From: an uncultured Dehalococcoidaceae bacterium
GTDB lineage: Bacteria > Chloroflexota > Dehalococcoidia > Dehalococcoidales > RBG-16-60-22
Length of the DNA stretch: 34,142 bases
NCBI GenBank assembly: GCA_964514525.1
Contig: CAZEUJ010000002.1
Span: forward strand, 1 to 34,142
Direction of reading: 5' to 3'
The notes under the pieces were generated by a model that saw nothing but the letters and a program-made list of their open reading frames with translations, made no database searches and was not told where the DNA came from. The position numbers were made by a program, and so were the translations under genes. Positions 1 to 30,787 of the stretch are shown piece by piece. The first letter of the stretch is position 1, and the number at the start of each line of letters is the position of its first letter.

Positions 1-694
1 GGATGATGTCCCCGGCGTCGAGCAGCTTGGCGCCGATGTACTTGGCCTTCTTTTCTTCGCCGGCGCAGAGCAGGTTGTAAAACGGCTCGGTTATCATGTT
101 GTTTATTTTGGAAAGGTTGGACTGGATGGAAGAATCTTTCCTCACGTACCTCTGGTTATCGACGAGGAAGACGGCGTCGGCGATCGAGTAGCTGGACTTG
201 AGACAGGTGGCGACGTTAAACATGGTCCTTTCTTCGGTGGTTTCTTCATGCTCGAAGGGAAGGACGATCAGGTTCCAGATCGGCTTATCGATATAGCGCT
301 CTTTCAGGTGCTGCGTGACGATAGAAATAGCGCCCGACCCGGTGCCGCCCGCCGACCCGGCGATGAGCAGGAAGGCGTCCGTTTCGAAGAACCTCTTGGT
401 GGTACGGATGGCGTCTATGATTTTATCGGCGTCTTCCTTGGCAATCTCGGCGCCGAGCTCGTTGATTTTGCCCACGCCGTGGCCGCCCGTCTTGCGGCTC
501 CCGATGAGGATTCTGTGGCGGTGGTCGTTACTGATGCTCGTTAACCCGCTCAGGTCGGCGGCATCCGTATTGACCGCAAAGCAGCCGGTAACAATAGTCA
601 TGCCCCGCCGCCCCTTGGCTCGACTGTTCAACCGGGAGAACTCGTCGGCGATTCTGCCGCCGCATTGACCCAGACCGACAACTACTAATTTCAT
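1..694 (-). CDS. Tubulin/FtsZ-superfamily GTPase, CetZ/tubulin-like paralog A (N-terminal 231 codons; the 3' end runs off the window)
   Basis: Missing from the ORF track because no stop codon lies in the window. Minus-strand ATG at 694-692, preceded by GAGGTG. My translation reads MKLVVVGLGQCGGRIADEFSRLN...TGGHGVGKINELGAEIA...LIAGSAGGTGSGAI...LVDNQRYV...LLCAGEEKK. It aligns without gaps to the N-terminus of the 3878-5050 protein (about 70-75% identity by eye). The tubulin signature [SAG]GGTG[SA]G is present. Confidence 0.85.
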   Translation of the reverse strand, partial: MKLVVVGLGQCGGRIADEFSRLNSRAKGRRGMTIVTGCFAVNTDAADLSGLTSISNDHRHRILIGSRKTGGHGVGKINELGAEIAKEDADKIIDAIRTTKRFFETDAFLLIAGSAGGTGSGAISIVTQHLKERYIDKPIWNLIVLPFEHEETTEERTMFNVATCLKSSYSIADAVFLVDNQRYVRKDSSIQSNLSKINNMITEPFYNLLCAGEEKKAKYIGAKLLDAGDII

Positions 695-731
695 CTTACA
701 CCTCGATTTTCTGAATTATGGCCTATTGCTA

Positions 732-760
732 TTTTTAACATAATAAATCTGTCATGTCAA
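732..760 (-). promoter_or_regulatory. Sigma70-like promoter for paralog A
   Basis: Minus strand reads TTGACA (760-755), 17-nt spacer, TAAAAA (737-732) with a TGn extension. It lies about 40 nt upstream of the ATG at 694. Confidence 0.55.
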
Positions 761-869
761 TCTTTAGTTCTGTGACTTTTGTAATGCTTTTTGGTACTAT
801 TCACTTCTTTACCTTCAATCATGTAATACAAAGCCAAATAATATTTTGTGTAAAAAGCAGGTTTGTTTA

Positions 870-898
870 TTGAAAAACTCAGGATTGGATAATATAAT
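870..898 (+). promoter_or_regulatory. Sigma70-like promoter for the 741-aa repeat protein gene
   Basis: TTGAAA (870-875), 17-nt spacer, TATAAT (893-898). AGGAAGG RBS at 931-937, ATG at 946. Confidence 0.6.
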
Positions 899-945
899 AT
901 GTAGGCTATACATGATAAAATACCCCTTCTAGGAAGGTTGGGCTG

Positions 946-3171
946 ATGTCTCCTGATATAAAACAAGACGTAGAAGGCAATATCGACGACTTTCAGAAGG
1001 CGGTGGCCAGGGCTGAGGCGCTGAGTCGGGCAGCCCGGCAGGCGGCCGGTATCTCGACGAAGACCGCCATGGAAATGGCCGCCCGGGCGGAGCAGATAGG
1101 CAAGGAAGCCAGAGAAGCCGCCGAGGCCGCCGCCAAAGCCGCCCAGGAAGCCGTCAGCCGCGCTGAGAAAATCAGCCGCGAGACCAGGGAATCTGCCGAA
1201 GCCGCTATTAAAGCCGCTCAGGAAGCTATCGGCCGGGCGGAAGAGATTGCCAGTAGGCCTAAAGAGACCACAAAAGCGATGACCAGGGCATTCGAGGAAG
1301 CCATCGCTCGGGCGGAAAAGACCAGCGTCGAGGCAATGCACGCCGCGGAGTCGGCGCTGATGTTATCTCAGGAAGGCCTTACCCGTATCGACGGCTTAAG
1401 CCGTGAGGCTAAAAAAACGGCGGAATCTGCCAGAGACGCCTCGGAAGAAGCAGTCACCATGGCCGAGACGACGGTCAAGACGGCCAGGGAAGCCGCGGAA
1501 GAGGCAATCAGAATTGCCAGGGATGCCGCCATAAAGGCTGACCGTTTGGCGCGGGAAGCCAAGGATGCCGCCGATGCCGCTACCAGGACCACCAGGGACA
1601 CGGTGCTCCGGGCGGAGAAAGCGAGTAAATCGACTAGGGAAGCGGCGGACATCTCTGCCAAAGCGGCGGAAGAAGCGGCTGCCCGCGCGGAAACAATCAG
1701 CAAGGTCGCCCGGGAGGTCGCCGAAGCCGCCCAGAGGTCCTCGCAGGAAACCCTGAACAAAATTGACGTAAGCAACCGGGAAGCCAGGCAGGTAACTGAC
1801 GCCCTGCAAAAAGCCTCCCAGGAAACGATGCGTCGGGCTGAAGAGATCGTCCAAGAGACCAAGGCGATAACCGAAGCCGCCATAAAACTGTCTAAGGAAG
1901 CTTCGGCGGCGTCCGTCAAAGCCTCCCACGAAGCCACCGCCAGGGCGGAGACTATCGGTAAGGAAGCCAAAGCCAGCGCGACGTTAGCCGCCGCAGAATT
2001 TAAGGAGGCGGTCGCCAGGGTCGAGCAGATAACCCGGGAAACCCGGGAAATCGCCGAGACTACTCTCAAGGACATTCAGTCAGCGATAGACCAGGCGATG
2101 GAAGAAGGAAAGAAGGTTATGGCTGTAGCCGAAGCATCCGCCCAGGCAGCCCGGAAGTCAGCCGAGACGTCTGCCAGGCAAGCCCAGGAAGCTGCCAGGC
2201 AATCAGTCGAGCAATCGAAGGAAGCCATTACCCGGGCCGAGGTTATCGGTAAAGAGACCACAGGGATGGTCGAGGCATCATCCACCGAGTTCCGCGAAAC
2301 CGTCGCCAGGATGGAAGAGGTAGCTCACGCGGCTAAAGAAGCTACTGAAGCGTCGGCCAAAGCGGCGCAGGATGCGGTTGAGGCATCCATAAAGCAATCC
2401 GAGGAGGCGGTAGCTAAAGCCGAGGAATTGAACCGTTCCGCCAGGGAGACGGCTGAGGAGTCTTTAAAAACCATCAAAGAAGCCATAGGGACCGCCACGA
2501 ACAGCGCCAGAGAGGCTGCCGAGGTTTCGCAGAAGGAAATCCAAGCAGCTATCACCCGCGCGGAGCAGGTCAGCCGCGAGACCAAGGAAGCCGCTCAGGC
2601 CGCGGTGAAGACCGCCCGCGAGGTAACGGGGACTCTCATTAAAGCCGCCCGGGAATCGGCGGAGAGGACGGTCAGAGCGGTCAAGGAAGCGACGGAAGCC
2701 TCGGCCAGAGTTGCCCGGGAGGCGGCCGGAGTTTCCATTACCGCTTTCAGAGAAGCCATCAGCCGCGCCGAGGCCACCGGCCAGGTCGCCCGGGAGACTG
2801 CCGAAGCATCTTTAAAGGCTTACCAGGCCACTCTCCACGAGGGGCGGATCGCCGGGGAAGATGAAGAGCCCGAAGAAGTGACCGAAGTTGAAAAACCGGG
2901 AATCGCTGAAGAACCGCGGAGTAAGGCGGTCGTCGGCTCCGAGGAAGAAGAGGACGATTCTTACCAGCCTACGGAAGCCGCCATCGAGACGATGAAACAG
3001 GCTATGGAAAAGGCAGGCAGTGCCGGCCAGGACGCCAGGGGAATCAATAAGGACACTAAAGGTAAAATGGAATCCCGCCTGGAGTCTTTAGCCAGGATGT
3101 ATGAGACGAAACGGAACGAGCAGGCGAAAAAGGGTCCCGGCGATGAGAACGCCGGTAAGGATAAGGATTGA
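946..3171 (+). CDS. Ala/Glu-rich alpha-helical tandem-repeat protein (741 aa) with an acidic and then Lys-rich C-terminal tail; function unknown
   Basis: Long ORF with an RBS and its own promoter. There is a strong 25-residue periodicity (consensus roughly EA[IV]xRAExI[SG]xExxExAExAxKAAQ). No TM segment or signal peptide is visible. The C-terminus reads GEDEEPEEVTEVEKPG...SEEEEDDSY...KKGPGDENAGKDKD. Confidence 0.85.
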   Translation: MSPDIKQDVEGNIDDFQKAVARAEALSRAARQAAGISTKTAMEMAARAEQIGKEAREAAEAAAKAAQEAVSRAEKISRETRESAEAAIKAAQEAIGRAEEIASRPKETTKAMTRAFEEAIARAEKTSVEAMHAAESALMLSQEGLTRIDGLSREAKKTAESARDASEEAVTMAETTVKTAREAAEEAIRIARDAAIKADRLAREAKDAADAATRTTRDTVLRAEKASKSTREAADISAKAAEEAAARAETISKVAREVAEAAQRSSQETLNKIDVSNREARQVTDALQKASQETMRRAEEIVQETKAITEAAIKLSKEASAASVKASHEATARAETIGKEAKASATLAAAEFKEAVARVEQITRETREIAETTLKDIQSAIDQAMEEGKKVMAVAEASAQAARKSAETSARQAQEAARQSVEQSKEAITRAEVIGKETTGMVEASSTEFRETVARMEEVAHAAKEATEASAKAAQDAVEASIKQSEEAVAKAEELNRSARETAEESLKTIKEAIGTATNSAREAAEVSQKEIQAAITRAEQVSRETKEAAQAAVKTAREVTGTLIKAARESAERTVRAVKEATEASARVAREAAGVSITAFREAISRAEATGQVARETAEASLKAYQATLHEGRIAGEDEEPEEVTEVEKPGIAEEPRSKAVVGSEEEEDDSYQPTEAAIETMKQAMEKAGSAGQDARGINKDTKGKMESRLESLARMYETKRNEQAKKGPGDENAGKDKD
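994..2845 (+). repeat. In-frame tandem repeat region with a 75-nt (25-codon) unit, about 24 units including 11- and 22-codon variants
   Basis: Manual parsing of the translation gives runs of exact 25-residue units anchored on RAE, for example EAVSRAEKISRETRESAEAAIKAAQ / EAIGRAEEIASRPKETTKAMTRAFE / EAIARAEKTSVEAMHAAESALMLSQ. Confidence 0.8.
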
Positions 3172-3204
3172 CCCGGATTAGCCTTGAAAATGGGTGAAAA
3201 TTGT

Positions 3205-3233
3205 TTGACTTTTTATCGGGTGCGCCATATACT
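3205..3233 (+). promoter_or_regulatory. Sigma70-like promoter for the 162-aa repeat protein gene
   Basis: TTGACT (3205-3210), 17-nt spacer, TATACT (3228-3233). AGGAGG RBS at about 3292-3297, GTG start at 3304. Confidence 0.6.
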
Positions 3234-3303
3234 TGGCATTAAGTGTGTTACGTTCAGAAAATAAATAATTAAAGCTAATAAGATTTATTAAAGGAGGTGC
3301 CTG

Positions 3304-3792
3304 GTGCCTAGCCAGAAAGAACGACCCAAAAAGCCAGAAATTAAAGAAGAAGCTCCCCCTGCGGGGGCTGAGACTGCCGGGGAGCGACCCAAGAGCGCGC
3401 TTGACGAAGTCATGAGCCAGGCCGAGAGGGCTTATGCCGCCTATATGGACGCCGAGCGTCAGGTCGCCAAGGCTTACCATGAGAATGAGATGCAGGTAGC
3501 CAAAGCCTATAAGCGGGCAGAAGCGCAGTCGCACCGGGCTTACGAGGCCACCGTGGCGCAGGCGATGAAAGACCGCGAGCAGGCGTTGGCTAAAGCCGCC
3601 AAGACCCGCGAGGATTTGATGCGGCGCGCCGAGGAGGCCTACCAGGCCGCCGTTCAAGCGGCTTCTAACGCCTGTGATGTGGCTATTGCTGAGGCTACCA
3701 GGGTCCGCGACGAACATGTCGAGAAAGCCTGGAAAGTTCGCGACGAGACCATCGAGCAGGCCTGGCAAATCTATTCCAAGATAGCCAGATAA
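3304..3792 (+). CDS. Small helical protein with a basic/Pro-rich N-terminus followed by eleven 11-residue (hendecad) repeats; function unknown
   Basis: GTG start with a strong AGGAGG RBS. Residues 41-161 parse exactly into 11 x 11 residues: ERAYAAYMDAE RQVAKAYHENE MQVAKAYKRAE AQSHRAYEATV ... EKAWKVRDETI EQAWQIYSKIA. Confidence 0.8.
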   Translation: MPSQKERPKKPEIKEEAPPAGAETAGERPKSALDEVMSQAERAYAAYMDAERQVAKAYHENEMQVAKAYKRAEAQSHRAYEATVAQAMKDREQALAKAAKTREDLMRRAEEAYQAAVQAASNACDVAIAEATRVRDEHVEKAWKVRDETIEQAWQIYSKIAR

Positions 3793-3877
3793 AGCTTTAA
3801 CTCATAGACGGGCTGACTGGTGGAATTATCAACCACTGGCTTCTAACGAATATGGGTTTTTAAACTGAATAACCGGA

Positions 3878-5050
3878 CTAAAGCAGCGAGGGAATGTCCT
3901 TTATCGTGATATCAATCCCTCGCTGCGTGCTTACCAGGCCTTCCTGGCGCTTCTTCAGTTCGGCGATGAGATTGATCGCTTTGGTGAAATAGCCCCTTAC
4001 CTTTTCCACGTCGCTCATTTCGGAGAGTATGACGGTGACATCCAGATTGCCTTTCTCCCTGGGGTAATCGCCGCTCCTGATGATCGCTTCCGGGGCTATA
4101 TTTTTTATGTAGGTACCCAGCTCTTTAATCAGGTCGACGTTGATTTCATCGGCCGGAGCGGACACGAGGTACAGGGCCCTCTTGGAGTCCAGCGGATTGC
4201 ATTTGATGGATAGCCCGCTGATGGCCTCATCGAGCGCGCGGGTGCCCTTTTGCGTTTCCGTGGCTTTGTCCCGGAAGTTGCGCGTCCGCATGAAGGTCTT
4301 AAAAATCGAGGTCTGTGACCGTCCGTAGCCCAGGGTCGTCCAGCCCACCAGTGTCTGGATGATGTCGCCGGCATCGAGTATCTTGGCGCCGATGAACCGC
4401 GACTTTTTTTCTTCGCCGGCGCAGAGCAGGTTGAAAAACGGTTGTACGATGGTGGTATTTATCTTGGCCAGATTGTGCGTGAGTGACGAGTCTTTCATCA
4501 CGTATCTCTGGTTATCGACGAGGAATATGGCGTCCGCCACCAGGTAGCTGGATTTGAGGCAGGTAGCCACGTTGTAAACGGTCCTGTCCTCGGTCAATAC
4601 CTCGTGCTCGAAAGGCAGGACTATCAGGTTATAGACCGGCCGGTCGACGTAGCGTTCCTTGATTTGCTGCGTCATTACCGGTATTGCCCCGGAGCCTGTG
4701 CCGCCGCCGGCGCTGGCGATAAGTAGAAAGGCGTCCGTTTCTGCGAAGTTTTCGGTGTTTCTTATCGTGTCGATGACCATGTCGGCGTCTTCGTGGGCTA
4801 TCTCGGCGCCGAGCTCGTTGATTTTCCCCACGCCGTGGCCGCCGGTCTTTTTCTTGCCGATGACGATACGCTGGCTGAAATCGGGCTTGATGGTGTGCAG
4901 GCCGCTCAGGTCGGCGAGGTCGGTATTGACCGCATAGGCGCCGGGGACGATATTGAGTCCGCGCAGGCCGCGGGCCCTTTTATTCAGGCGGGCGAACTCA
5001 TCGGCGATTCTGCCGCCGCATTGCCCGAAGCCGACAACTACTAGCTTCAT
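3878..5050 (-). CDS. Tubulin/FtsZ-superfamily GTPase, CetZ/tubulin-like paralog B (full length, 390 aa)
   Basis: N-terminal MKLVVVGFGQCGGRIADEF (T1 loop GQCGG, as in tubulin GQCGN). Also GGHGVGKINELGAEIA, ASAGGGTGSGAI (tubulin-type GGGTGSG rather than FtsZ GGGTGTG), LVDNQRYV, LLCAGEE and a C-terminal GDYP motif. From memory these resemble archaeal CetZ. GAGGGTG RBS. Confidence 0.88.
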   Translation of the reverse strand: MKLVVVGFGQCGGRIADEFARLNKRARGLRGLNIVPGAYAVNTDLADLSGLHTIKPDFSQRIVIGKKKTGGHGVGKINELGAEIAHEDADMVIDTIRNTENFAETDAFLLIASAGGGTGSGAIPVMTQQIKERYVDRPVYNLIVLPFEHEVLTEDRTVYNVATCLKSSYLVADAIFLVDNQRYVMKDSSLTHNLAKINTTIVQPFFNLLCAGEEKKSRFIGAKILDAGDIIQTLVGWTTLGYGRSQTSIFKTFMRTRNFRDKATETQKGTRALDEAISGLSIKCNPLDSKRALYLVSAPADEINVDLIKELGTYIKNIAPEAIIRSGDYPREKGNLDVTVILSEMSDVEKVRGYFTKAINLIAELKKRQEGLVSTQRGIDITIKDIPSLL

Positions 5051-5076
5051 TCTTCACCCTCTCAGGTAGTCTCCCC

Positions 5077-5105
5077 ATTTTACGCAATTCCGCAACATGT
5101 GTCAA
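5077..5105 (-). promoter_or_regulatory. Sigma70-like promoter for paralog B
   Basis: Minus strand reads TTGACA (5105-5100), 17-nt spacer, TAAAAT (5082-5077), about 27 nt upstream of the ATG at 5050. Confidence 0.65.
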
Positions 5106-5185
5106 TCGGTGCTTATAAAAAGGTCGTATTAGAATTTCGTCTTTGCCGCATGGGACTTTCGTCATGTCCCTCCGTGACTTTTTCT

Positions 5186-6217
<1,032 letters not shown>

Positions 6218-15076: not shown

Positions 15077-15790
15077 CTACCGTCCCGCAGGTGTTTTAGC
15101 TTTTAGTTCAGTTTCCAGGATTTCTAGGAAATGGTGTTCGCCCCTGGTGACCTTTTCGCTTTTGGTAATCTCCAGCCGCTTTTTAAACAAAGGTCCGTCA
15201 ATCACCAGGGTATGGTATTCCCCGGCTTCGCCGCAGATGGTGATGCCTTTGTCCCGCCCCGCCAGGAACGTCAGGAATTCCCTATCGATGATTCTCCCCA
15301 GTATTTCTTTCCCGAAGAGCTCAGCCTTGACGACGACGACCACCGCGATGAAACCGGCGTCGATGAATTCTTCTATGAGAGTCTTCTGGTCTTCGTTCCA
15401 CAAAGGGAGGTACGGCGTAAGGCCTGCCTTCTGGCATACCTTTTCATTCCATTCCCGGTGCGGCGCAAAATCGATATCCCCGAAGACCCCGCCACCGATG
15501 CCCTTCCGCTTGAATTCTCGAAGCATATCGACAAATACCGATTCGTAAGTCTCCGTAGTGGTGGGTCGCTGTACGATGGGAATGCCCAGGGCTTCCGCCT
15601 GCTTTTTGATGACCTCGGCCCGGATGCCATGACTGCACGAGCGCCGGCCGTCCTCGCTGACCATGTTGGCAAGGTAGCGGACATCCATCCCATTACGAAT
15701 TGCCCGGTAAAGTGCGAGGCAGCTATCCTTGCCCCCGCTCCATGAGGCGAAGACCCGTTTTTTGTCTTTTTTATCGTTCGATGTAACCAT
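15077..15790 (-). CDS. PP-loop ATP pyrophosphatase, Dph6/MJ0570-related (diphthine--ammonia ligase-like)
   Basis: N-terminal SWSGGKDS PP-loop, then the EYHT motif (GEAGEYHTLVIDGP) typical of the MJ0570 domain. Confidence 0.8.
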   Translation of the reverse strand: MVTSNDKKDKKRVFASWSGGKDSCLALYRAIRNGMDVRYLANMVSEDGRRSCSHGIRAEVIKKQAEALGIPIVQRPTTTETYESVFVDMLREFKRKGIGGGVFGDIDFAPHREWNEKVCQKAGLTPYLPLWNEDQKTLIEEFIDAGFIAVVVVVKAELFGKEILGRIIDREFLTFLAGRDKGITICGEAGEYHTLVIDGPLFKKRLEITKSEKVTRGEHHFLEILETELKAKTPAGR

Positions 15791-16627: not shown

Positions 16628-17782
16628 TTATTCCTCTTCTCCGGCGTGTTTCCGGAGCCAGAGTTGAGGGTAACTGGCCGTAATACGCCTGAGCGTTTCT
16701 AGTTTATCGCGTAAACCCCGGGGGACGGTTTCATCGGTGAGAAGCTGCTTTAAAAGTGCTGGATCGAACCCCAGCACCCTTACCCACAGCCCCTCCGGTT
16801 CCAGCAGGGCTTTAACTTCCTCCTCGCTGAATCCCGTCCTTTCCGTGATTTTGTAGGTGATTTCGCACGTGTTGCCGAAGACCCGGTTCAAGCCTTCCTT
16901 CTGGCAGTACTCGATAATCGTCTGCTTGGCTTCCTCAAGCTGCGTCTGTAGTTCTTTAATCTGTGCCTGAAGGGCGGCGTAGCGTTCGACGGCATCGATG
17001 GCTGCAATACCCGGCAGGACTTCCTGTCGTGCCGCCTCGGGAGCGATGGTCAGATACTGGTGTCGATAGTAGGGGCAGTGCTCGGGGAAATCGCAAGGGC
17101 AGAACTGGCCCTCCACCGCCGGGAAATTGCCCCGGTTGATATTATCGGCTACTTCTTTAACGAGCTGCCGCGCCTCCTCGATTTTTGCTCGTTCCCGCGG
17201 CGGGCAGTGGCAGGGCGTGTTCGACCTCAGGTGATAGAGGGTCAGCCTTTCGACGGGGAGTTTCCAGGTCTGCTCGGCCGCCATCTGATATATCGTCAGT
17301 TGGAGGTCGTCTGCCAGATAATCGGCGGTAAAAAGCTCCTTGTTCGTTTTGTAGTCGATGATGGATAGGCCGCCGCTGTCCAGCTTATCTACCCTGTCGA
17401 TAAAACCCCGGAGTTTAATCCCTTCGACGTCGATAGTAAAGTTGCGTTCCAGCGCTATCGGCAGGCGGAAATCGGTCTGGTGAATTTCCCAGAACCGGGT
17501 CAGAATATCCCTTCCATACTTCTTATACCTGGCTTCTTCTTCGGCCGATTCGTAGCCCTGGGAAAGCCAGTTCTGTCCGTAATAATTGAGCAGTTCTGCC
17601 AGTGATGGCGGCGGCGGTGTGTTTACTCTGAAAAAGTACTCGACGCAGTCGTGCATCGTGGTACCGAAGCTGAAATACGACCTGTCTTTCGGTTTGAGGC
17701 CGTCAATATACTGTAGTTTATAACATAAGGGGCATGACCGATAAAGAGAAATCTGGGTGAAACTCAGGGGTTTAATTGTCAT
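16628..17782 (-). CDS. PD-(D/E)XK nuclease superfamily protein, Cas4/AddB-nuclease-like with an Fe-S cysteine set
   Basis: FIDRVDKL...SIIDYKT (D...D/ExK core). An N-terminal Cys region (SCPLCYK) plus C-terminal CPCDFPEHCPYY suggest a 4-Cys cluster as in Cas4/AddB. There is a C-terminal extension of about 140 aa. AGGGAGG RBS. Confidence 0.75.
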   Translation of the reverse strand: MTIKPLSFTQISLYRSCPLCYKLQYIDGLKPKDRSYFSFGTTMHDCVEYFFRVNTPPPPSLAELLNYYGQNWLSQGYESAEEEARYKKYGRDILTRFWEIHQTDFRLPIALERNFTIDVEGIKLRGFIDRVDKLDSGGLSIIDYKTNKELFTADYLADDLQLTIYQMAAEQTWKLPVERLTLYHLRSNTPCHCPPRERAKIEEARQLVKEVADNINRGNFPAVEGQFCPCDFPEHCPYYRHQYLTIAPEAARQEVLPGIAAIDAVERYAALQAQIKELQTQLEEAKQTIIEYCQKEGLNRVFGNTCEITYKITERTGFSEEEVKALLEPEGLWVRVLGFDPALLKQLLTDETVPRGLRDKLETLRRITASYPQLWLRKHAGEEE

Positions 17783-27361: not shown

Positions 27362-28711
27362 GTGAAAACGTCATCGGTGGCCAGTAAAAACCACACCACC
27401 CCCGGTACTACCAGAATGACAATGGAAACCTTATCCAGAAACGAAGCTGAAGAACCTCCCAGTAAAACTCCAGTCCCTAAAAGTATCGATGACGAACCTC
27501 CCGGTAAAAGCGCTGCCGGAAGATTTGGACTGTTCGGGAACGTACCGGATAGTTCCTGGAATGATTGGAAGTGGCACTTCCGTAACCGCATCACTACCGT
27601 TGACCAGCTCAGCCAGCTGGTGCCGCTATCGATTGAGGAAAAAGCGCAAATCGAAATGGTTTGCCAGCGTTATCCTCTCGCCATCACCCCTTACTACCTG
27701 TCGCTCATTAACCCCGACGACCCCAATGACCCCGTAAGGAAACAGGCGATACCTTCTATTCTTGAGATTTCCATGAGCGATATCGGTATGGAAGACCCCC
27801 TGGCCGAAAAAGAGGACTCGGTTGTCCCCGGCCTCGTGCACCGCTATCCTGATAGGGTGTTGATGGTCCTCACGGATATCTGTCCCATGCTCTGCCGTCA
27901 CTGTACCCGCAAGCGCGAATGGCGGCACGGCGGCTGGGTGCGGCCTTTTAGCGAGATTGAAGCCATGCTGGACTATTTACGCCGGAACACTAAAGTAAGG
28001 GATGTCATTATCTCCGGCGGCGACCCCCTGACGCTTTCGACCGCTCACCTGGAGATCATTATATCTAAGATACGGGAAATCAAGCACATCGAAATCATAC
28101 GTATCGGCAGCCGGTTCCCCGTGGTGTTGCCGCAACGTATTGATGCCGAACTCTGTGACATGCTCTCGAAGCACGGCCCGATATGGTTTAACACCCACTT
28201 CAACCACCCCCGTGAGATCACCCCGGAGGCGGCCGCCGCCTGCGACCGCTTGCTACGCGCCGGCGTGCCGGTGAATAACCAGTCGGTATTGCTGCGGGGC
28301 ATCAACGATAGTGTTCAGACGCAGCTTAAACTCTGCCAGGGTTTACTCAAGGCTAAAGTGCGTCCGTATTACCTCTTCCAGTGTGATGAGGTTCAGGGTA
28401 CGGAACATCTCCGCACCCCGATAGAAGTGGGTATAAAAATTATTGAAGGTATGCGCGGGCATACCTCCGGCCTGGCCGTCCCCAACTTCGTCGTGGACCT
28501 GGTTAACGGCGGTGGCAAGGTGCCTTTACAGCCGAACTACGTGCTATCGATGACCAAAGACGAACTGCTGTTGAAGAACTACGAGGGTAAGGTCTTCCGT
28601 TATCGTAATCCGAATTCGTCAAGCCGCCGGGAAAACGTTGTCAAGAATCCCTCGGTTAGCGGCGTCGTGGATAAACTTCTGGCGGATGCCAATTTGCCGG
28701 TAAAGGTTTAA
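27362..28711 (+). CDS. KamA-family radical SAM aminomutase (lysine 2,3-aminomutase-like) with a low-complexity N-terminal extension of about 60 aa
   Basis: CPMLCRHCTRK (CxxxCxxC). W-rich KamA N-terminal box (WNDWKWHFRNRI). NNQSVLLRGIND, PYYLFQCD and GHTSGLAVPNFVVD motifs as I remember them from KamA/AblA. The start is uncertain: GTG at 27362 or ATG at 27416. Confidence 0.9.
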   Translation: MKTSSVASKNHTTPGTTRMTMETLSRNEAEEPPSKTPVPKSIDDEPPGKSAAGRFGLFGNVPDSSWNDWKWHFRNRITTVDQLSQLVPLSIEEKAQIEMVCQRYPLAITPYYLSLINPDDPNDPVRKQAIPSILEISMSDIGMEDPLAEKEDSVVPGLVHRYPDRVLMVLTDICPMLCRHCTRKREWRHGGWVRPFSEIEAMLDYLRRNTKVRDVIISGGDPLTLSTAHLEIIISKIREIKHIEIIRIGSRFPVVLPQRIDAELCDMLSKHGPIWFNTHFNHPREITPEAAAACDRLLRAGVPVNNQSVLLRGINDSVQTQLKLCQGLLKAKVRPYYLFQCDEVQGTEHLRTPIEVGIKIIEGMRGHTSGLAVPNFVVDLVNGGGKVPLQPNYVLSMTKDELLLKNYEGKVFRYRNPNSSSRRENVVKNPSVSGVVDKLLADANLPVKV

Positions 28712-28721
28712 GGAGAGGTAG

Positions 28722-29723
28722 ATGCGGATCGGGTTATCGTTTGACCTTAAAGCGGCGGTAGAGGGTCGCCTCACCGCCGAAGACGCGCTGGAAGAATACG
28801 ATTCCCCGGAAACGGTGGAGATGATATCGGCGGCCCTCAAGTCGAAAGGGCATACCGTCGTCAGGCTGGGGGGCGGCCCGCATTTTCTTGATAATATCCG
28901 TCGCGAGAGCGTTGATATCGTCTTTAACATCGCCGAAGGCCGCGGTACCTACCGCAGTCGGGAGGCTCAGGTGCCGGCCGTCCTGGAGATGCTGGATATT
29001 CCCTATACCGGCTCTGACCCTCTGACGCTGGCGGTGTGTCTTGATAAACCGCTGACCAAGAAGCTGGTAGCGGCGGAGGGTATCAGCACCCCCGGGTGGC
29101 TGGTAATTGCCGGCGGGGAAGATTTACGCCGGGCGCCCTGGGAAAAGCTGACCTTCCCGGTCATTATCAAGCCGGCCTCAGAAGGTTCGAGCAAGGGCAT
29201 CCGCCTGACTTCTCTCGCGACCAATATCCCACAGGCGGAAGCGGAAATCCGCCGGATTCTGGATGGTTACCGCCAGCCGGTCATGGTGGAAGAGTTCATC
29301 GACGGCGAAGAGGTAACCGTGGGCATCGTCGGGAACTCGCCGCCCAAAATTGTGGGTATGATGCGCGTCGTGCCGAAAAAACCGGTCGAGCATTTCGTCT
29401 ATTCGCTGGAGGTCAAGCGCGACTACGTTAATCTGGTCGACTATGAAACTCCCGCCCGGCTGTCTATAAATACCCTCGAAAAGATGGAGCATTTCAGTCT
29501 TAAAGCCTTTAAGACGCTCGGCTGCCGCGACTTTTCCCGCGTTGACTTCCGTGTCAGCCGCGATGGTACGCCCTACTTTATTGAAATCAATCCCCTCCCC
29601 GGACTCGGGAGCTACAGCGACCTCGTCATCATGGCGCTGATGCTGGGCTGGACTTACGAAGCGTTAATCGGTACCGTGCTTGATGCCGCTATAGAGAGGT
29701 ACCCGCAATGTGTGCGCGTATAG
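28722..29723 (+). CDS. ATP-grasp ligase, D-alanine--D-alanine ligase-like (1)
   Basis: AAGGAGAGG RBS 10 nt after the upstream stop. Ddl-like layout: GxxGEDG-type loop replaced by IAEGRGTYRSREAQVPAVLEMLDIPYTGS, DKPLTKKL, VIIKPASEGSSKGI, MVEEFIDGEEVTV, FIEINPLPG. Confidence 0.85.
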   Translation: MRIGLSFDLKAAVEGRLTAEDALEEYDSPETVEMISAALKSKGHTVVRLGGGPHFLDNIRRESVDIVFNIAEGRGTYRSREAQVPAVLEMLDIPYTGSDPLTLAVCLDKPLTKKLVAAEGISTPGWLVIAGGEDLRRAPWEKLTFPVIIKPASEGSSKGIRLTSLATNIPQAEAEIRRILDGYRQPVMVEEFIDGEEVTVGIVGNSPPKIVGMMRVVPKKPVEHFVYSLEVKRDYVNLVDYETPARLSINTLEKMEHFSLKAFKTLGCRDFSRVDFRVSRDGTPYFIEINPLPGLGSYSDLVIMALMLGWTYEALIGTVLDAAIERYPQCVRV

Positions 29724-30787
29724 CCGTCGTCTATAACGAGCCGAACCCGTCGCGCTATGACCGTACCCATGAACAGAAAGCGGTTGTCGGCGTTCTAGAA
29801 GCCGTAGAAGCGGTCCGCACATCTATACTTGAGCTGGACTATGAAGTGGTCCTTTTACCGCTGGTACCGCCTTTTGAGACGGCCAGGCGGAAGCTGGCAT
29901 CTCTGGAAGTCGCCCTGGTCTTCAATCTTTTCGAAGGTTTTTGCGGCGAGCCGGAAACGGAAGCCCTGGTGCCGGAAGCCTTGACAGAACTGGGGATACC
30001 ATTTACTGGTTGCCAGGCTGCGGTGCTCAGGCTTGGCCTGGATAAAGCCAAGGTCAAGGTGTTGCTCCAGGCCGCTGGCATTCCCACGGCGGACTTTCAA
30101 TTGCTTAACCCTGAGACGTTACATATGTTTCGCCTCGATTATCCCTGCATTGTCAAACCACGTGCCGATGATGCCAGTAACGGTATCACCGCGGATAGCG
30201 TGGTCCAGGATTTCCCTTCGCTGGCAAGGCAAGTGAACGTCATCGCAGAGTCTTACGGCGGTAACGCTCTGGTGGAACGGTTTATTGGCGGATGTGAGTT
30301 CAACGCCACGGTTATGGGCAACTCCGAATTTATCGTATTACCTGTGTCTGAAATCGTTTATTCATTATCACCGGGGTTGCCTCGCATCCTAAATTTTGAA
30401 GCCAAATGGGAGGAGGACAGCGTCTATTTTCAGGGCACCAAGGTTGTTTGTCCGGCGGAGATTGAACCTAGGGAGCGTGAATGCATTGCCGAGACAGCCT
30501 TGGCAGCTTACAGATTACTTGGTTGTAGCGGATACGCCCGGGTGGATATGCGCATGGACGAGGCAGGGGAACTTAATGTAATGGAGGTCAATCCCAATCC
30601 GGATATCTCGCCGGGTACCGGCGCGGCCCGGCAGGCTCTGGCGGCCGGTATGAATTATACACAGTTCATTGATAAGATTGTTAAACTGGCTCTGGAGAAG
30701 AAAAATTATGACCGTCGGCATCCGCCCCATGGTCGCCGGGGACAAACCGGCGCTGATGCAAATACTGCGGAATACGCCCGAATTTAA
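29708..30787 (+). CDS. ATP-grasp ligase, D-alanine--D-alanine ligase-like (2)
   Basis: ATG overlaps the upstream stop by 16 nt. ELGIPFTGC, DKAKVKVLL, CIVKPRADDASNGI, LVERFIGGCEFNATV and VMEVNPNPD match the ATP-grasp core. The last 26 or so residues overlap the next gene and look low-complexity. Confidence 0.85.
   Translation: MCARIAVVYNEPNPSRYDRTHEQKAVVGVLEAVEAVRTSILELDYEVVLLPLVPPFETARRKLASLEVALVFNLFEGFCGEPETEALVPEALTELGIPFTGCQAAVLRLGLDKAKVKVLLQAAGIPTADFQLLNPETLHMFRLDYPCIVKPRADDASNGITADSVVQDFPSLARQVNVIAESYGGNALVERFIGGCEFNATVMGNSEFIVLPVSEIVYSLSPGLPRILNFEAKWEEDSVYFQGTKVVCPAEIEPRERECIAETALAAYRLLGCSGYARVDMRMDEAGELNVMEVNPNPDISPGTGAARQALAAGMNYTQFIDKIVKLALEKKNYDRRHPPHGRRGQTGADANTAEYARI

Follow-up and report, generated by a model that had tools for sequence, protein, structure and literature searches.

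Two CetZ-like GTPase genes bracket two coiled-coil protein genes in a conserved chromosomal cluster of the Dehalococcoidales

Introduction

The CetZ branch of the tubulin superfamily is described as specific to archaea by Brown & Duggin 2023, and the locus reported here raises the question of what two CetZ-like genes, and two further genes placed between them, might be doing in a bacterium, a host that lies outside that description. The locus occupies positions 1–5105 of a 34,142-nt stretch of contig CAZEUJ010000002.1; the whole stretch is referred to below as the window. In a first-pass annotation, made from the sequence alone, it had been put forward as an undescribed cytoskeletal module composed of two tubulin-like paralogs and two helical repeat proteins.

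Dehalococcoidia are abundant subsurface and marine bacteria that include the main organohalide-respiring organisms of bioremediation. Like haloarchaea they are without peptidoglycan, have an S-layer-like envelope and are disc-shaped, and the CetZ pair offers a testable hypothesis for how that shape is organised. The pair is also a natural experiment on how a duplicated tubulin-family gene specialises, with the products of the two intervening genes, here named CC741 and CC162, as candidate CetZ partners. On balance, we favour the explanation that the locus is a conserved CetZ cytoskeleton cluster, in which GTP-dependent filaments would be docked by a C-terminal peptide (KDIPSLL), scaffolded by coiled coils and used to organise cell shape or envelope beside FtsZ.

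Results and Discussion

Assignment of the two GTPases to the CetZ family

Both GTPase genes are read from the minus strand. cetZA (3878–5050, minus strand, ATG start) encodes a complete protein of 390 aa, while cetZB (1–694, minus strand) runs off the start of the window and is represented by its N-terminal 231 codons; full-length cetZB orthologues measure 390–395 aa. Pfam Tubulin (PF00091) matched the two translations at 2e-32 (cetZA) and 4.4e-32 (cetZB). The CetZ_C model (Pfam PF21011) was matched by cetZA with 65.7 bits against a gathering cutoff of 21.6. The cetZB fragment is too short to reach that cutoff, giving 12 bits over 44 residues, and a full-length cetZB orthologue in locus L083 carries both Tubulin and CetZ_C (PF21011). 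The FtsZ equivalog model (NCBIfam ftsZ, TIGR00065) returned 58–60 bits against a cutoff of 295, and Tubulin_2 (PF13809) returned 10 bits against a cutoff of 27.

Comparison with known structures gave the same ranking. In a phmmer search of the PDB with cetZA the first match was Haloferax CetZ1 (4b46, 3.6e-42), aligned over residues 1 to 360, followed by CetZ2 (4b45, 1e-31) and the CetZ of Methanosaeta (M.) thermophila (3zid, 5e-15). Below these came FtsZ at 4.6e-12 or worse, the Asgard, bacterial and eukaryotic tubulins at 1e-8 or worse, and BtubA/B at E values of about 1e-5 to 1e-6. An AlphaFold2 model of cetZA, built on an alignment of 48 diverse relatives, was confident (predicted local distance difference test (pLDDT) 91.7, predicted template modelling score 0.89). 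When this model was submitted to Foldseek, the three CetZ crystal structures took ranks 1–3 with template modelling (TM) scores of 0.93, 0.92 and 0.82 and FtsZ structures came next; the root-mean-square deviation of the model from CetZ1 was 1.9 Å. Identity to CetZ1 in a full-length HMMER alignment is about 40% and extends to GHGVG, the GDYP strand and the acidic residues of the T7 loop. The profile searches, phmmer and Foldseek thus agree with the initial judgement that the proteins are nearer to CetZ than to FtsZ, and the products of cetZA and cetZB are very probably members of the CetZ family and not FtsZ.

The motifs on which that judgement had been based were all recovered, at the coordinates claimed, in two tubulin-like paralogs bracketing two open reading frames (ORFs). 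Both copies contain GQCGG, GGTGSG, GHGVGKINELGAE, LVDNQRY and LLCAGEE, and GDYP is present in the full copy (aa 327–330). In cetZA the T1 loop GQCGG, which contributes to nucleotide binding, lies at aa 9–13 (5012–5026, minus strand), where G9 and G12 are invariant in 48 diverse family members. The T4 signature GGTGSG lies at aa 116–121 (4688–4705, minus strand); in the same 48 members G116 and G119 are invariant, and conservation is 90% or more at G117, T118, S120 and G121. The FtsZ hallmarks GGGTGTG and NxDFAD are absent from both window GTPases and present in the genuine FtsZ of locus L073, which is discussed further below.

The T7/helix H8 segment LDAGDII (4358–4378, minus strand, in cetZA; nt 2–22 in cetZB) is conserved in both paralog clades. 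By residue alignment to 4b46, D226 of cetZA corresponds to D215 of Haloferax CetZ1 and D229 to E218, the latter being the residue mutated in the reported dominant-negative CetZ1.E218A. As the GTPase motifs and the T7 acidic residues are intact in A and B, both proteins appear fully equipped to bind nucleotide and to activate its hydrolysis by a neighbouring subunit.

The CetZ assignment does not extend to the canonical euryarchaeal clade. In our own trees, which were built by neighbour joining with a simple distance correction, the Dehalococcoidia sequences are placed apart from the clade of HvCetZ1 and HvCetZ2. The outgroup was an E. coli FtsZ in the first of these trees and the FtsZ of L073 in the bootstrapped one, and deep branching is better taken from published maximum-likelihood trees. 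In such a tree (PMC9871819), the Dehalococcoidia form a clade with 100% support beside Altiarchaeota CetZ-like sequences. The accurate label is therefore a bacterial CetZ-like subfamily: CetZ by domain content, sequence and fold, outside the CetZ1/CetZ2 clade, and found in a bacterial host. Membership in FtsZl1 or FtsZl2 (Makarova & Koonin 2010) is unlikely on account of the strong full-length match to CetZ.

Resemblance to the archaeal proteins is not confined to the GTPase core. Archaeal CetZs (4B46, 4B45, 3ZID) share with the window proteins the combination of Tubulin and CetZ_C domains and a C-terminus made up of a long helix and a short hydrophobic peptide, and they too occur in wall-less, S-layer-bounded hosts that also have FtsZ for division. 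The window proteins differ from them in being bacterial, in forming a separate clade, in their FtsZ-like D-I-P-S-L-L tail and in the fixed tandem pair around the CC genes.

Genomic context and conservation of the cluster

The remaining genes of the window are bacterial housekeeping genes, among them type I GAPDH, enolase, Pth, NAD-dependent LigA, ribulose-phosphate epimerase and a Liv-type ABC transporter. The nearest database proteins are labelled as coming from metagenome-assembled genomes (MAGs) of Dehalococcoidales and of ‘Chloroflexi bacterium RBG’. Neither GTPase is a chance ORF, given the Pfam Tubulin matches and the 5965 homologues in the protein database. A scan at one genome per species yielded 78 related loci. 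The organism label was Dehalococcoidales, Dehalococcoidia, Chloroflexota or Chloroflexia for 75 of these; the other three had another label or none. As had been supposed from the window's genes, the host is bacterial: it is an uncultured Dehalococcoidales bacterium (Chloroflexota), and the gene cluster is chromosomal.

The census was taken by tblastn of the window proteins against the 78 loci. The gene order is eno-(GNAT)-(MBL)-(HGD-D)-gap-cetZA-><-CC162<-CC741 cetZB->dnaX, and the cetZ genes lie between gap and dnaX in at least 70 genomes. Both cetZ genes and both CC genes are present in 45 of the 78 loci, and the four-gene arrangement is thus conserved in relatives. A further four (L033, L037, L041 and L046, all from one subclade) have both cetZ genes and one shorter CC741-type gene and are without CC162; 19 show a partial module up to the end of the contig, six have a single cetZ gene and four are too short to judge. 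cetZB orthologues ending in KDIPSLL were found in 52 loci at 78–94% identity, and the same genes were called in L083 by an independent pipeline.

All four genes are under constraint. Pairwise Nei-Gojobori comparison with seven relatives gave ratios of nonsynonymous to synonymous change (dN/dS) of 0.04–0.12 for cetZA, 0.04–0.12 for cetZB, 0.11–0.19 for CC162 and 0.12–0.18 for CC741. The CC genes evolve much faster, being 35–76% identical where the CetZ proteins are 73–95% identical; by their dN/dS values they are nevertheless real genes under purifying selection (0.11–0.19 across the two). In this sample they occur only together with a duplicated cetZ and always exactly between the copies. Neither of the outcomes that had been named beforehand as refuting a module, namely clustering of the paralogs within FtsZ or another described bacterial family, or a neighbourhood that is not conserved, was found.

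Genomic setting also bears on the proposal that the genes serve, in the manner of TubZ, to segregate the DNA of a mobile element or prophage. TubZ is related to CetZ in the Santana-Molina trees (PMC9871819), and some distant CetZ-like genes are found amid resolvases and insertion sequence (IS) elements (L084) or beside a terminase-like match (L079, L080). The genes of the window, however, stand in a housekeeping context (eno, gap, dnaX, ligA, pth) with a chromosomal synteny that is stable in at least 70 species. The neighbouring genes of the window include none for a TubR-like DNA-binding protein, an integrase or another mobile-element function, PHROGs gave no meaningful match, and Tubulin_2 reached only the 10 bits given above. 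We therefore consider a TubZ-like system highly improbable, and a phage or plasmid origin is effectively refuted by the genomic context and the PHROGs result.

Part of this picture is in the literature. In Santana-Molina et al. 2023 (PMC9871819), CetZ-like proteins are reported from Chloroflexota-Dehalococcoidia with C-termini that match the CetZ_C model, and the CetZ-like group is given one sentence, as ‘sparse paraphyletic groups’. The published list of CetZ_C matches includes proteins of D. mccartyi and Dehalogenimonas. For RBG-13-51-18, RBG-16-60-22 and RBG-16-56-11, which correspond to loci L011, L028 and L020, it includes both the A and the B protein, with accession numbers that differ by three. 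The literature searched, which includes the available text of PMC9871819, describes neither the A/B duplication nor the CC genes, the gap–dnaX locus, the invariant FtsZ-like tail or a connection with wall-lessness. Likewise, the CC-gene context was not among the CetZ-linked genes encountered in the portions of Brown & Duggin 2023 that were searched for other terms. The word undescribed, as originally applied to the locus, consequently has to be withdrawn for the CetZ-like proteins and can be kept, within these sources, for the module.

Two loci depart from the general pattern. On the 1.56-Mb long-read contig CAVSFE010000002.1 the cetZB orthologue (L003:12439–13610) is split in two frames near codon 330, which is probably an assembly indel and not a pseudogene. 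In locus L022 (8091 bases, binned as ‘Syntrophaceae bacterium’), gap and an A-type cetZ (81% identity) precede unrelated genes and a stretch of N; the locus looks like a case of mis-binning or a chimeric scaffold and not like a genuine exception to the module.

Origin of the pair and divergence between A and B

Three genomes (L072, L074 and L078) show a single-copy layout, gap-cetZ-dnaX-ybaB-recR, at the same site. As these single-copy genomes mark the position, the pair arose when one cetZ located between gap and dnaX was duplicated in tandem; the CC gene or genes lie between the resulting copies. The A and B proteins are about 67% identical and form clades with bootstrap values of 98 (A) and 96 (B). 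The single-copy protein of L072 is nested within clade B (96), from which it follows that this lineage lost cetZA, CC162 and CC741 together.

The A and B clades have 194 invariant columns in common. Divergence between them is concentrated in the M-loop region (approximately aa 240–262) and in the linker past the last core helix (aa 355–383).

Transcription appears to be separate for each gene. A promoter scan of positions 1–5300 found 10 near-consensus sites against 2.3 ± 1.5 in shuffled sequence. The AT-rich divergent promoter region between cetZB and CC741 (695–945) contains the promoter-like sites TTGACA-18-AAAAAT for cetZB (760–731, minus strand) and TTGAAA-17-TATAAT for CC741 (870–898, plus strand), and when this 251-bp spacer was aligned across 15 loci the two divergent promoter blocks were the only conserved stretches. 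A site ahead of CC162 (TTGACT-17-TATACT, 3205–3233, plus strand) was recognised by its match to consensus only, and the scan found one ahead of cetZA (TTGACA-17-TAAAAT, 5077–5105, minus strand) with 11 of 12 positions matching. Each of the four genes thus has its own putative sigma-70-like promoter.

These data bear on the analogy, drawn when the pair was first noticed, with alpha/beta-tubulin and BtubA/BtubB. In that account CetZ-A and CetZ-B would be an obligate heterodimer forming a microtubule-like polymer, with a coiled-coil protein in the role of BtubC. The stable retention of two paralog clades at about 67% identity with strong bootstrap values agrees with it, and the non-enzymatic helical gene between the copies recalls btubA-btubB-bklc; like BtubA/BtubB/BtubC of Prosthecobacter, the locus combines a bacterial tubulin-superfamily pair with the gene for a non-enzymatic helical partner, both systems probably having come from outside Bacteria. 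The homology is at the superfamily level only, however, similarity to BtubA/B (about 1e-5 to 1e-6) being far weaker than to CetZ, and CC741 is a predicted coiled coil whereas BtubC is a tetratricopeptide repeat (TPR) protein. The btubAB genes are co-transcribed and specify an obligate heterodimer, whereas the cetZ pair has separate promoters about 4 kb apart. In addition, the T7 acidic residues and identical tails are found in both copies, leaving no catalytic division of labour, and single-copy relatives, including cultured Dehalogenimonas, manage with one protein of the subfamily. The analogy is accordingly not upheld, and an obligate heterodimer appears quite unlikely.

AKG53714, the Dehalogenimonas protein in question, shares 60% of its residues with cetZA, 65% with a cetZB orthologue and 67.5% with the single-copy type. 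Laboratory work is feasible, since cultured Dehalogenimonas and Dehalococcoides carry such single-copy relatives at 60–67% identity.

The intervening coiled-coil proteins

CC741 (946–3171, plus strand) encodes a protein of 741 aa, with orthologues of 517–852 aa in 54 loci, and CC162 (3304–3792, plus strand, GTG start) a helical protein of 162 aa that is conserved in 61 loci; the distribution of both is stated for the 78 loci. Both are rich in Ala (23%) and Glu (14–16%), CC741 having 23% Ala, 16% Glu and a net charge of −24. As the annotation had stated, neither contains an enzymatic domain, none being found in scans of Pfam, NCBIfam and PHROGs. Direct reading of the two sequences revealed no signal peptide or transmembrane segment, and the CC proteins are therefore taken to be cytoplasmic. 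In a database of 5.8 billion proteins, CC741 and CC162 matched only spurious histidine-kinase coiled coils or small fragments; known orthologues were missed by this search as well.

The description of these proteins as helical repeats of the solenoid, BtubC-like kind has to be replaced: they are predicted coiled-coil rods built from 25-residue and 11-residue repeats. In CC741 a 25-residue repeat (consensus ISREAREAAEAAtKAAQEAaaRAEk) recurs approximately 25 times over residues 15–625. Autocorrelation is maximal at lags of 25, 50 and 75, the hydrophobic period is 3.61, and the hydrophobic moment, at 100.5 degrees per residue (corresponding to 25/7), keeps its phase through 611 residues. Such periodicity is the signature expected of a 7+7+11 coiled coil. 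Fully extended, the rod of about 610 residues would measure approximately 90 nm, taking 0.15 nm per residue. Conservation is highest in the N-terminal third, at residues 520–625, at an invariant Pro105 and in the C-terminal helix with its invariant RLxxLxxMYE, ahead of which lies an acidic, variable and probably disordered linker (residues 630–675). A single-sequence AlphaFold2 model, of low confidence, was all-helical, with segments of 164–185 residues.

CC162 has a variable Pro/Lys/Glu-rich N-terminus, a conserved core at aa 32–75 made of 11-residue Tyr repeats (ExQVAKAYxxx) and a conserved, Trp-rich C-terminus (EKAWKVRDETIEQAWQIYSKIAR). Homology between CC162 and CC741 was considered and rejected, blastp giving E values of 0.087 or worse and hhalign a probability of 1.8%.

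Crescentin, FilP/Scy and Helicobacter Ccrp are, as is predicted for CC741, long cytoplasmic rods of low-complexity coiled coil with non-heptad periodicity, and roles in shape or polarity have been proposed for them; Scy has long hendecad-based repeats. No sequence homology was detected between CC741 and these proteins, and its 25-residue (7+7+11) repeat is distinctive.

Several antisense ORFs within 757–3768 on the minus strand (e.g. 1368–2075, 1396–1929 and 3178–3768) overlap CC741 and CC162 and could mislead gene callers. They were rejected as genes: they look like mirror-image artefacts of GCN/GAR-rich coding, and it is the sense frames that have low dN/dS and conserved length.

The C-terminal peptide and the relation to FtsZ

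In cetZA the peptide KDIPSLL (3881–3901, minus strand) is placed after a long terminal helix and linker (aa 349–384), and about 120 sequences of A and B orthologues close with this peptide, with no or almost no variation. The tails of many relatives read [DE][IL]P[ST]LL and those of members of the archaeal clade ..(S/P)L(F/L), with ..SLF/..PLF as the archaeal type. Given these related tails across the family, a short hydrophobic C-terminal peptide is a family trait. A phmmer search of the PDB with the 45-residue C-terminal tail gave no meaningful match. The FtsZ C-terminal peptide of L073, DELDVPSFLRKP, resembles KDIPSLL, and the FtsZ peptide of Dehalococcoidia reads D[VM]PSFLR against DIPSLL in the CetZ-like proteins. 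In other bacteria the FtsZ C-terminal peptide binds FtsA. KDIPSLL is presumed to be a docking site for a partner or a membrane tether.

Dehalococcoidales are reported to have lost dcw and peptidoglycan genes, to possess an S-layer-like wall and to have kept mraZ-mraW-ftsA-ftsZ (PMC10608941). Locus L073 agrees with this report: it contains mraZ, rsmH, an ftsA whose product ends in an amphipathic helix, and a canonical ftsZ (GGGTGTG, NLDFADV), followed directly by a single cetZ-like gene. As canonical FtsA and FtsZ are thus present elsewhere in genomes of the order, the CetZ pair is additional to the divisome. The L073 region (L073:3811–9176, from the MAG ‘Dehalococcoidales bacterium ARS1330’) has its cetZ directly 3' of mraZ-rsmH-ftsA-ftsZ and 5' of nrdR. 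The window genes have no such position next to ftsA; only the single cetZ of L073 adjoins ftsA-ftsZ.

With FtsZ the window proteins share the superfamily and a conserved C-terminal peptide on a flexible linker, and, to judge from sequence, GTP-dependent polymerisation. They differ from it in failing the equivalog model, in lacking GGGTGTG and NxDFAD, in lying outside the dcw remnant (L073 being adjacent to it) and in coexisting with a true FtsZ.

It may be asked whether the CetZ-like proteins are accessory division proteins that act at the septum with FtsZ and FtsA, similar to the two FtsZ paralogs of wall-less archaea. The position of the L073 gene directly 3' of mraZ-rsmH-ftsA-ftsZ is in line with this, as is the likeness of KDIPSLL to the FtsZ peptide D[VM]PSFL, by which both proteins could compete for FtsA. 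The genes, however, lie mostly between gap and dnaX and distant from ftsA-ftsZ, and a canonical FtsZ, complete and with a C-terminal peptide of its own, has been kept. For Haloferax CetZ1, the characterised protein closest to them, Duggin et al. 2015 are reported to have found a requirement in rod formation and none in division. In D. mccartyi, FtsZ and a second tubulin-like GTPase fall together in cells with an arrested ring-shaped septum (PMC8163811), which again would suit a division role. Taking both sides together, we hold an accessory role in division to be rather unlikely.

The same study offers a connection to shape. In D. mccartyi BTF08, btf_0551, annotated as a second ‘FtsZ/Tubulin GTPase’, and btf_0548, a hypothetical protein encoded nearby, were abundant in the disc-shaped cells of pure culture and reduced or undetectable in the barrel-shaped cells of co-culture (PMC8163811). 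This is indirect support for a role of the CetZ pair in shape or envelope, which may be regarded as an even prospect.

A proposed CetZ cytoskeleton and its limits

In the explanation that we favour, that of a CetZ cytoskeleton cluster, each CetZ would bind GTP and polymerise head to tail into protofilaments, a step suggested by the intact T1–T7 elements of A and B alike, among them the acidic T7 residues with which one subunit completes the active site of its neighbour. KDIPSLL, carried on the long helix and linker, would attach the filaments to an adaptor or a membrane tether. For that part FtsA, or another binder of the FtsZ tail, is proposed because the peptide resembles that of FtsZ in the same lineage (D[VM]PSFL), FtsA being the obvious choice. 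The CC741 rod and CC162 would serve as a filament-associated scaffold, spacer or cross-linker. The differences between A and B would give the two filaments different lateral contacts or partners, as suggested by their concentration in the M-loop region and the C-terminal linker, and would not reflect an obligate dimer like that of alpha/beta-tubulin. The system as a whole would organise shape and envelope in cells that have an S-layer and no wall, a task that falls to CetZ1 in Haloferax.

The participation of the CC proteins is open to dispute. The functional link to the repeat proteins drawn in the first-pass annotation has conserved synteny in its favour, which is weak evidence. The competing account holds that the CC genes are unrelated neighbours, encoding stress, LEA-like, envelope or matrix-associated proteins, so that only the CetZs are cytoskeletal and the module is inherited synteny. 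The following findings speak for that account and against the favoured explanation alike. The link consists of adjacency within one family-level clade, in which the whole eno...gap...dnaX region, unrelated metabolic genes included, is equally syntenic; the four genes are separate transcription units with their own promoters, the CC genes being on the opposite strand; CC162 is missing from one subclade and hence dispensable there; and distant CetZ-like proteins of Dehalococcoidia (51%, 46% and 40% identity) are solitary, in unrelated contexts and without coiled-coil neighbours. No domain found in the Pfam, NCBIfam and PHROGs scans ties the CC proteins to tubulin-binding families. The association of CC genes and cetZ amounts to essentially one gain and one joint loss, and the loss could be a simple deletion.

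Against unrelated neighbours, on the other hand, stand the confinement of the CC genes in this sample to duplicated cetZ loci, where they always lie between the copies, the joint loss of cetZA and both CC genes in L072 and the conservation of the divergent cetZB/CC741 promoters as a unit. The termini of CC741 are invariant, as expected of interaction motifs, and the CC proteins are cytoplasmic, having no signal peptide or transmembrane segment. We judge the unrelated-neighbour account to be rather unlikely, and a direct partnership between CetZ and the coiled coils to be a tentative proposition that falls just short of an even chance. The accessory-division and unrelated-neighbour accounts overlap partly with the favoured explanation, and our estimates for the three are not meant to sum to one.

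Other points also weigh against a CetZ cytoskeleton as proposed. Docking to FtsA is suggested by a resemblance of six residues, and archaeal CetZs carry a related tail; to our knowledge, the hosts of archaeal CetZs lack FtsA. The AlphaFold2 model of CC741 is of low confidence (pLDDT 63). The proteins btf_0551 and btf_0548 are putative orthologues at most. We know of no experiment on any bacterial CetZ-like protein, and of no direct binding partner of CetZ filaments.

A bolder version of the explanation is that wall-less Dehalococcoidales acquired an archaeal-type CetZ and that in one family-level lineage CetZ-A and CetZ-B now form a two-filament system, tethered to FtsA by the FtsZ-like C-terminal peptide and braced by the rod of about 90 nm (CC741) and CC162, that sets the disc shape in place of a wall. 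We regard this version as speculative and, as a whole, improbable. If it were true, no functional CetZ cytoskeleton would have been known in Bacteria before, and CC741 and CC162 would be the first CetZ-binding partners known in any organism.

Distant relatives and other genes of the window

Among the more distant relatives, the CetZ-like protein P0303 (L084:8001–9257; 418 aa, Tubulin and CetZ_C domains, from a 65-member cluster) is encoded amid genes for resolvases, IS605 OrfB/TnpB and an IS66 transposase, and some CetZ-like genes may be mobile. The subgroup with 51% identity (L079:842–3623 and L080:2264–4996) lies convergent with a conserved 457-aa gene matching Pfam Terminase_6C, which is followed by a 114-aa gene; the L079/L080 pair was found in two unrelated samples.

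Elsewhere in the window, a solitary 384-aa PD-(D/E)XK nuclease of Cas4/AddB-like type is encoded at 16628–17782, and no cas genes or repeat array were noticed nearby. Positions 27362–30787 contain a lysine-2,3-aminomutase-like radical-SAM gene and then two D-Ala-D-Ala-ligase-like ATP-grasp genes, although the lineage is reported to be without peptidoglycan synthesis; these genes may belong to a beta-lysine or small-peptide pathway and not to wall synthesis. The 237-aa protein encoded at 15077–15790 is nearest to models of archaeal diphthine-ammonia ligase (Dph6) and PAB0415-type ATP pyrophosphatase, with 142 bits, below the 197-bit cutoff, and is a further archaeal-flavoured gene product on this bacterial contig.

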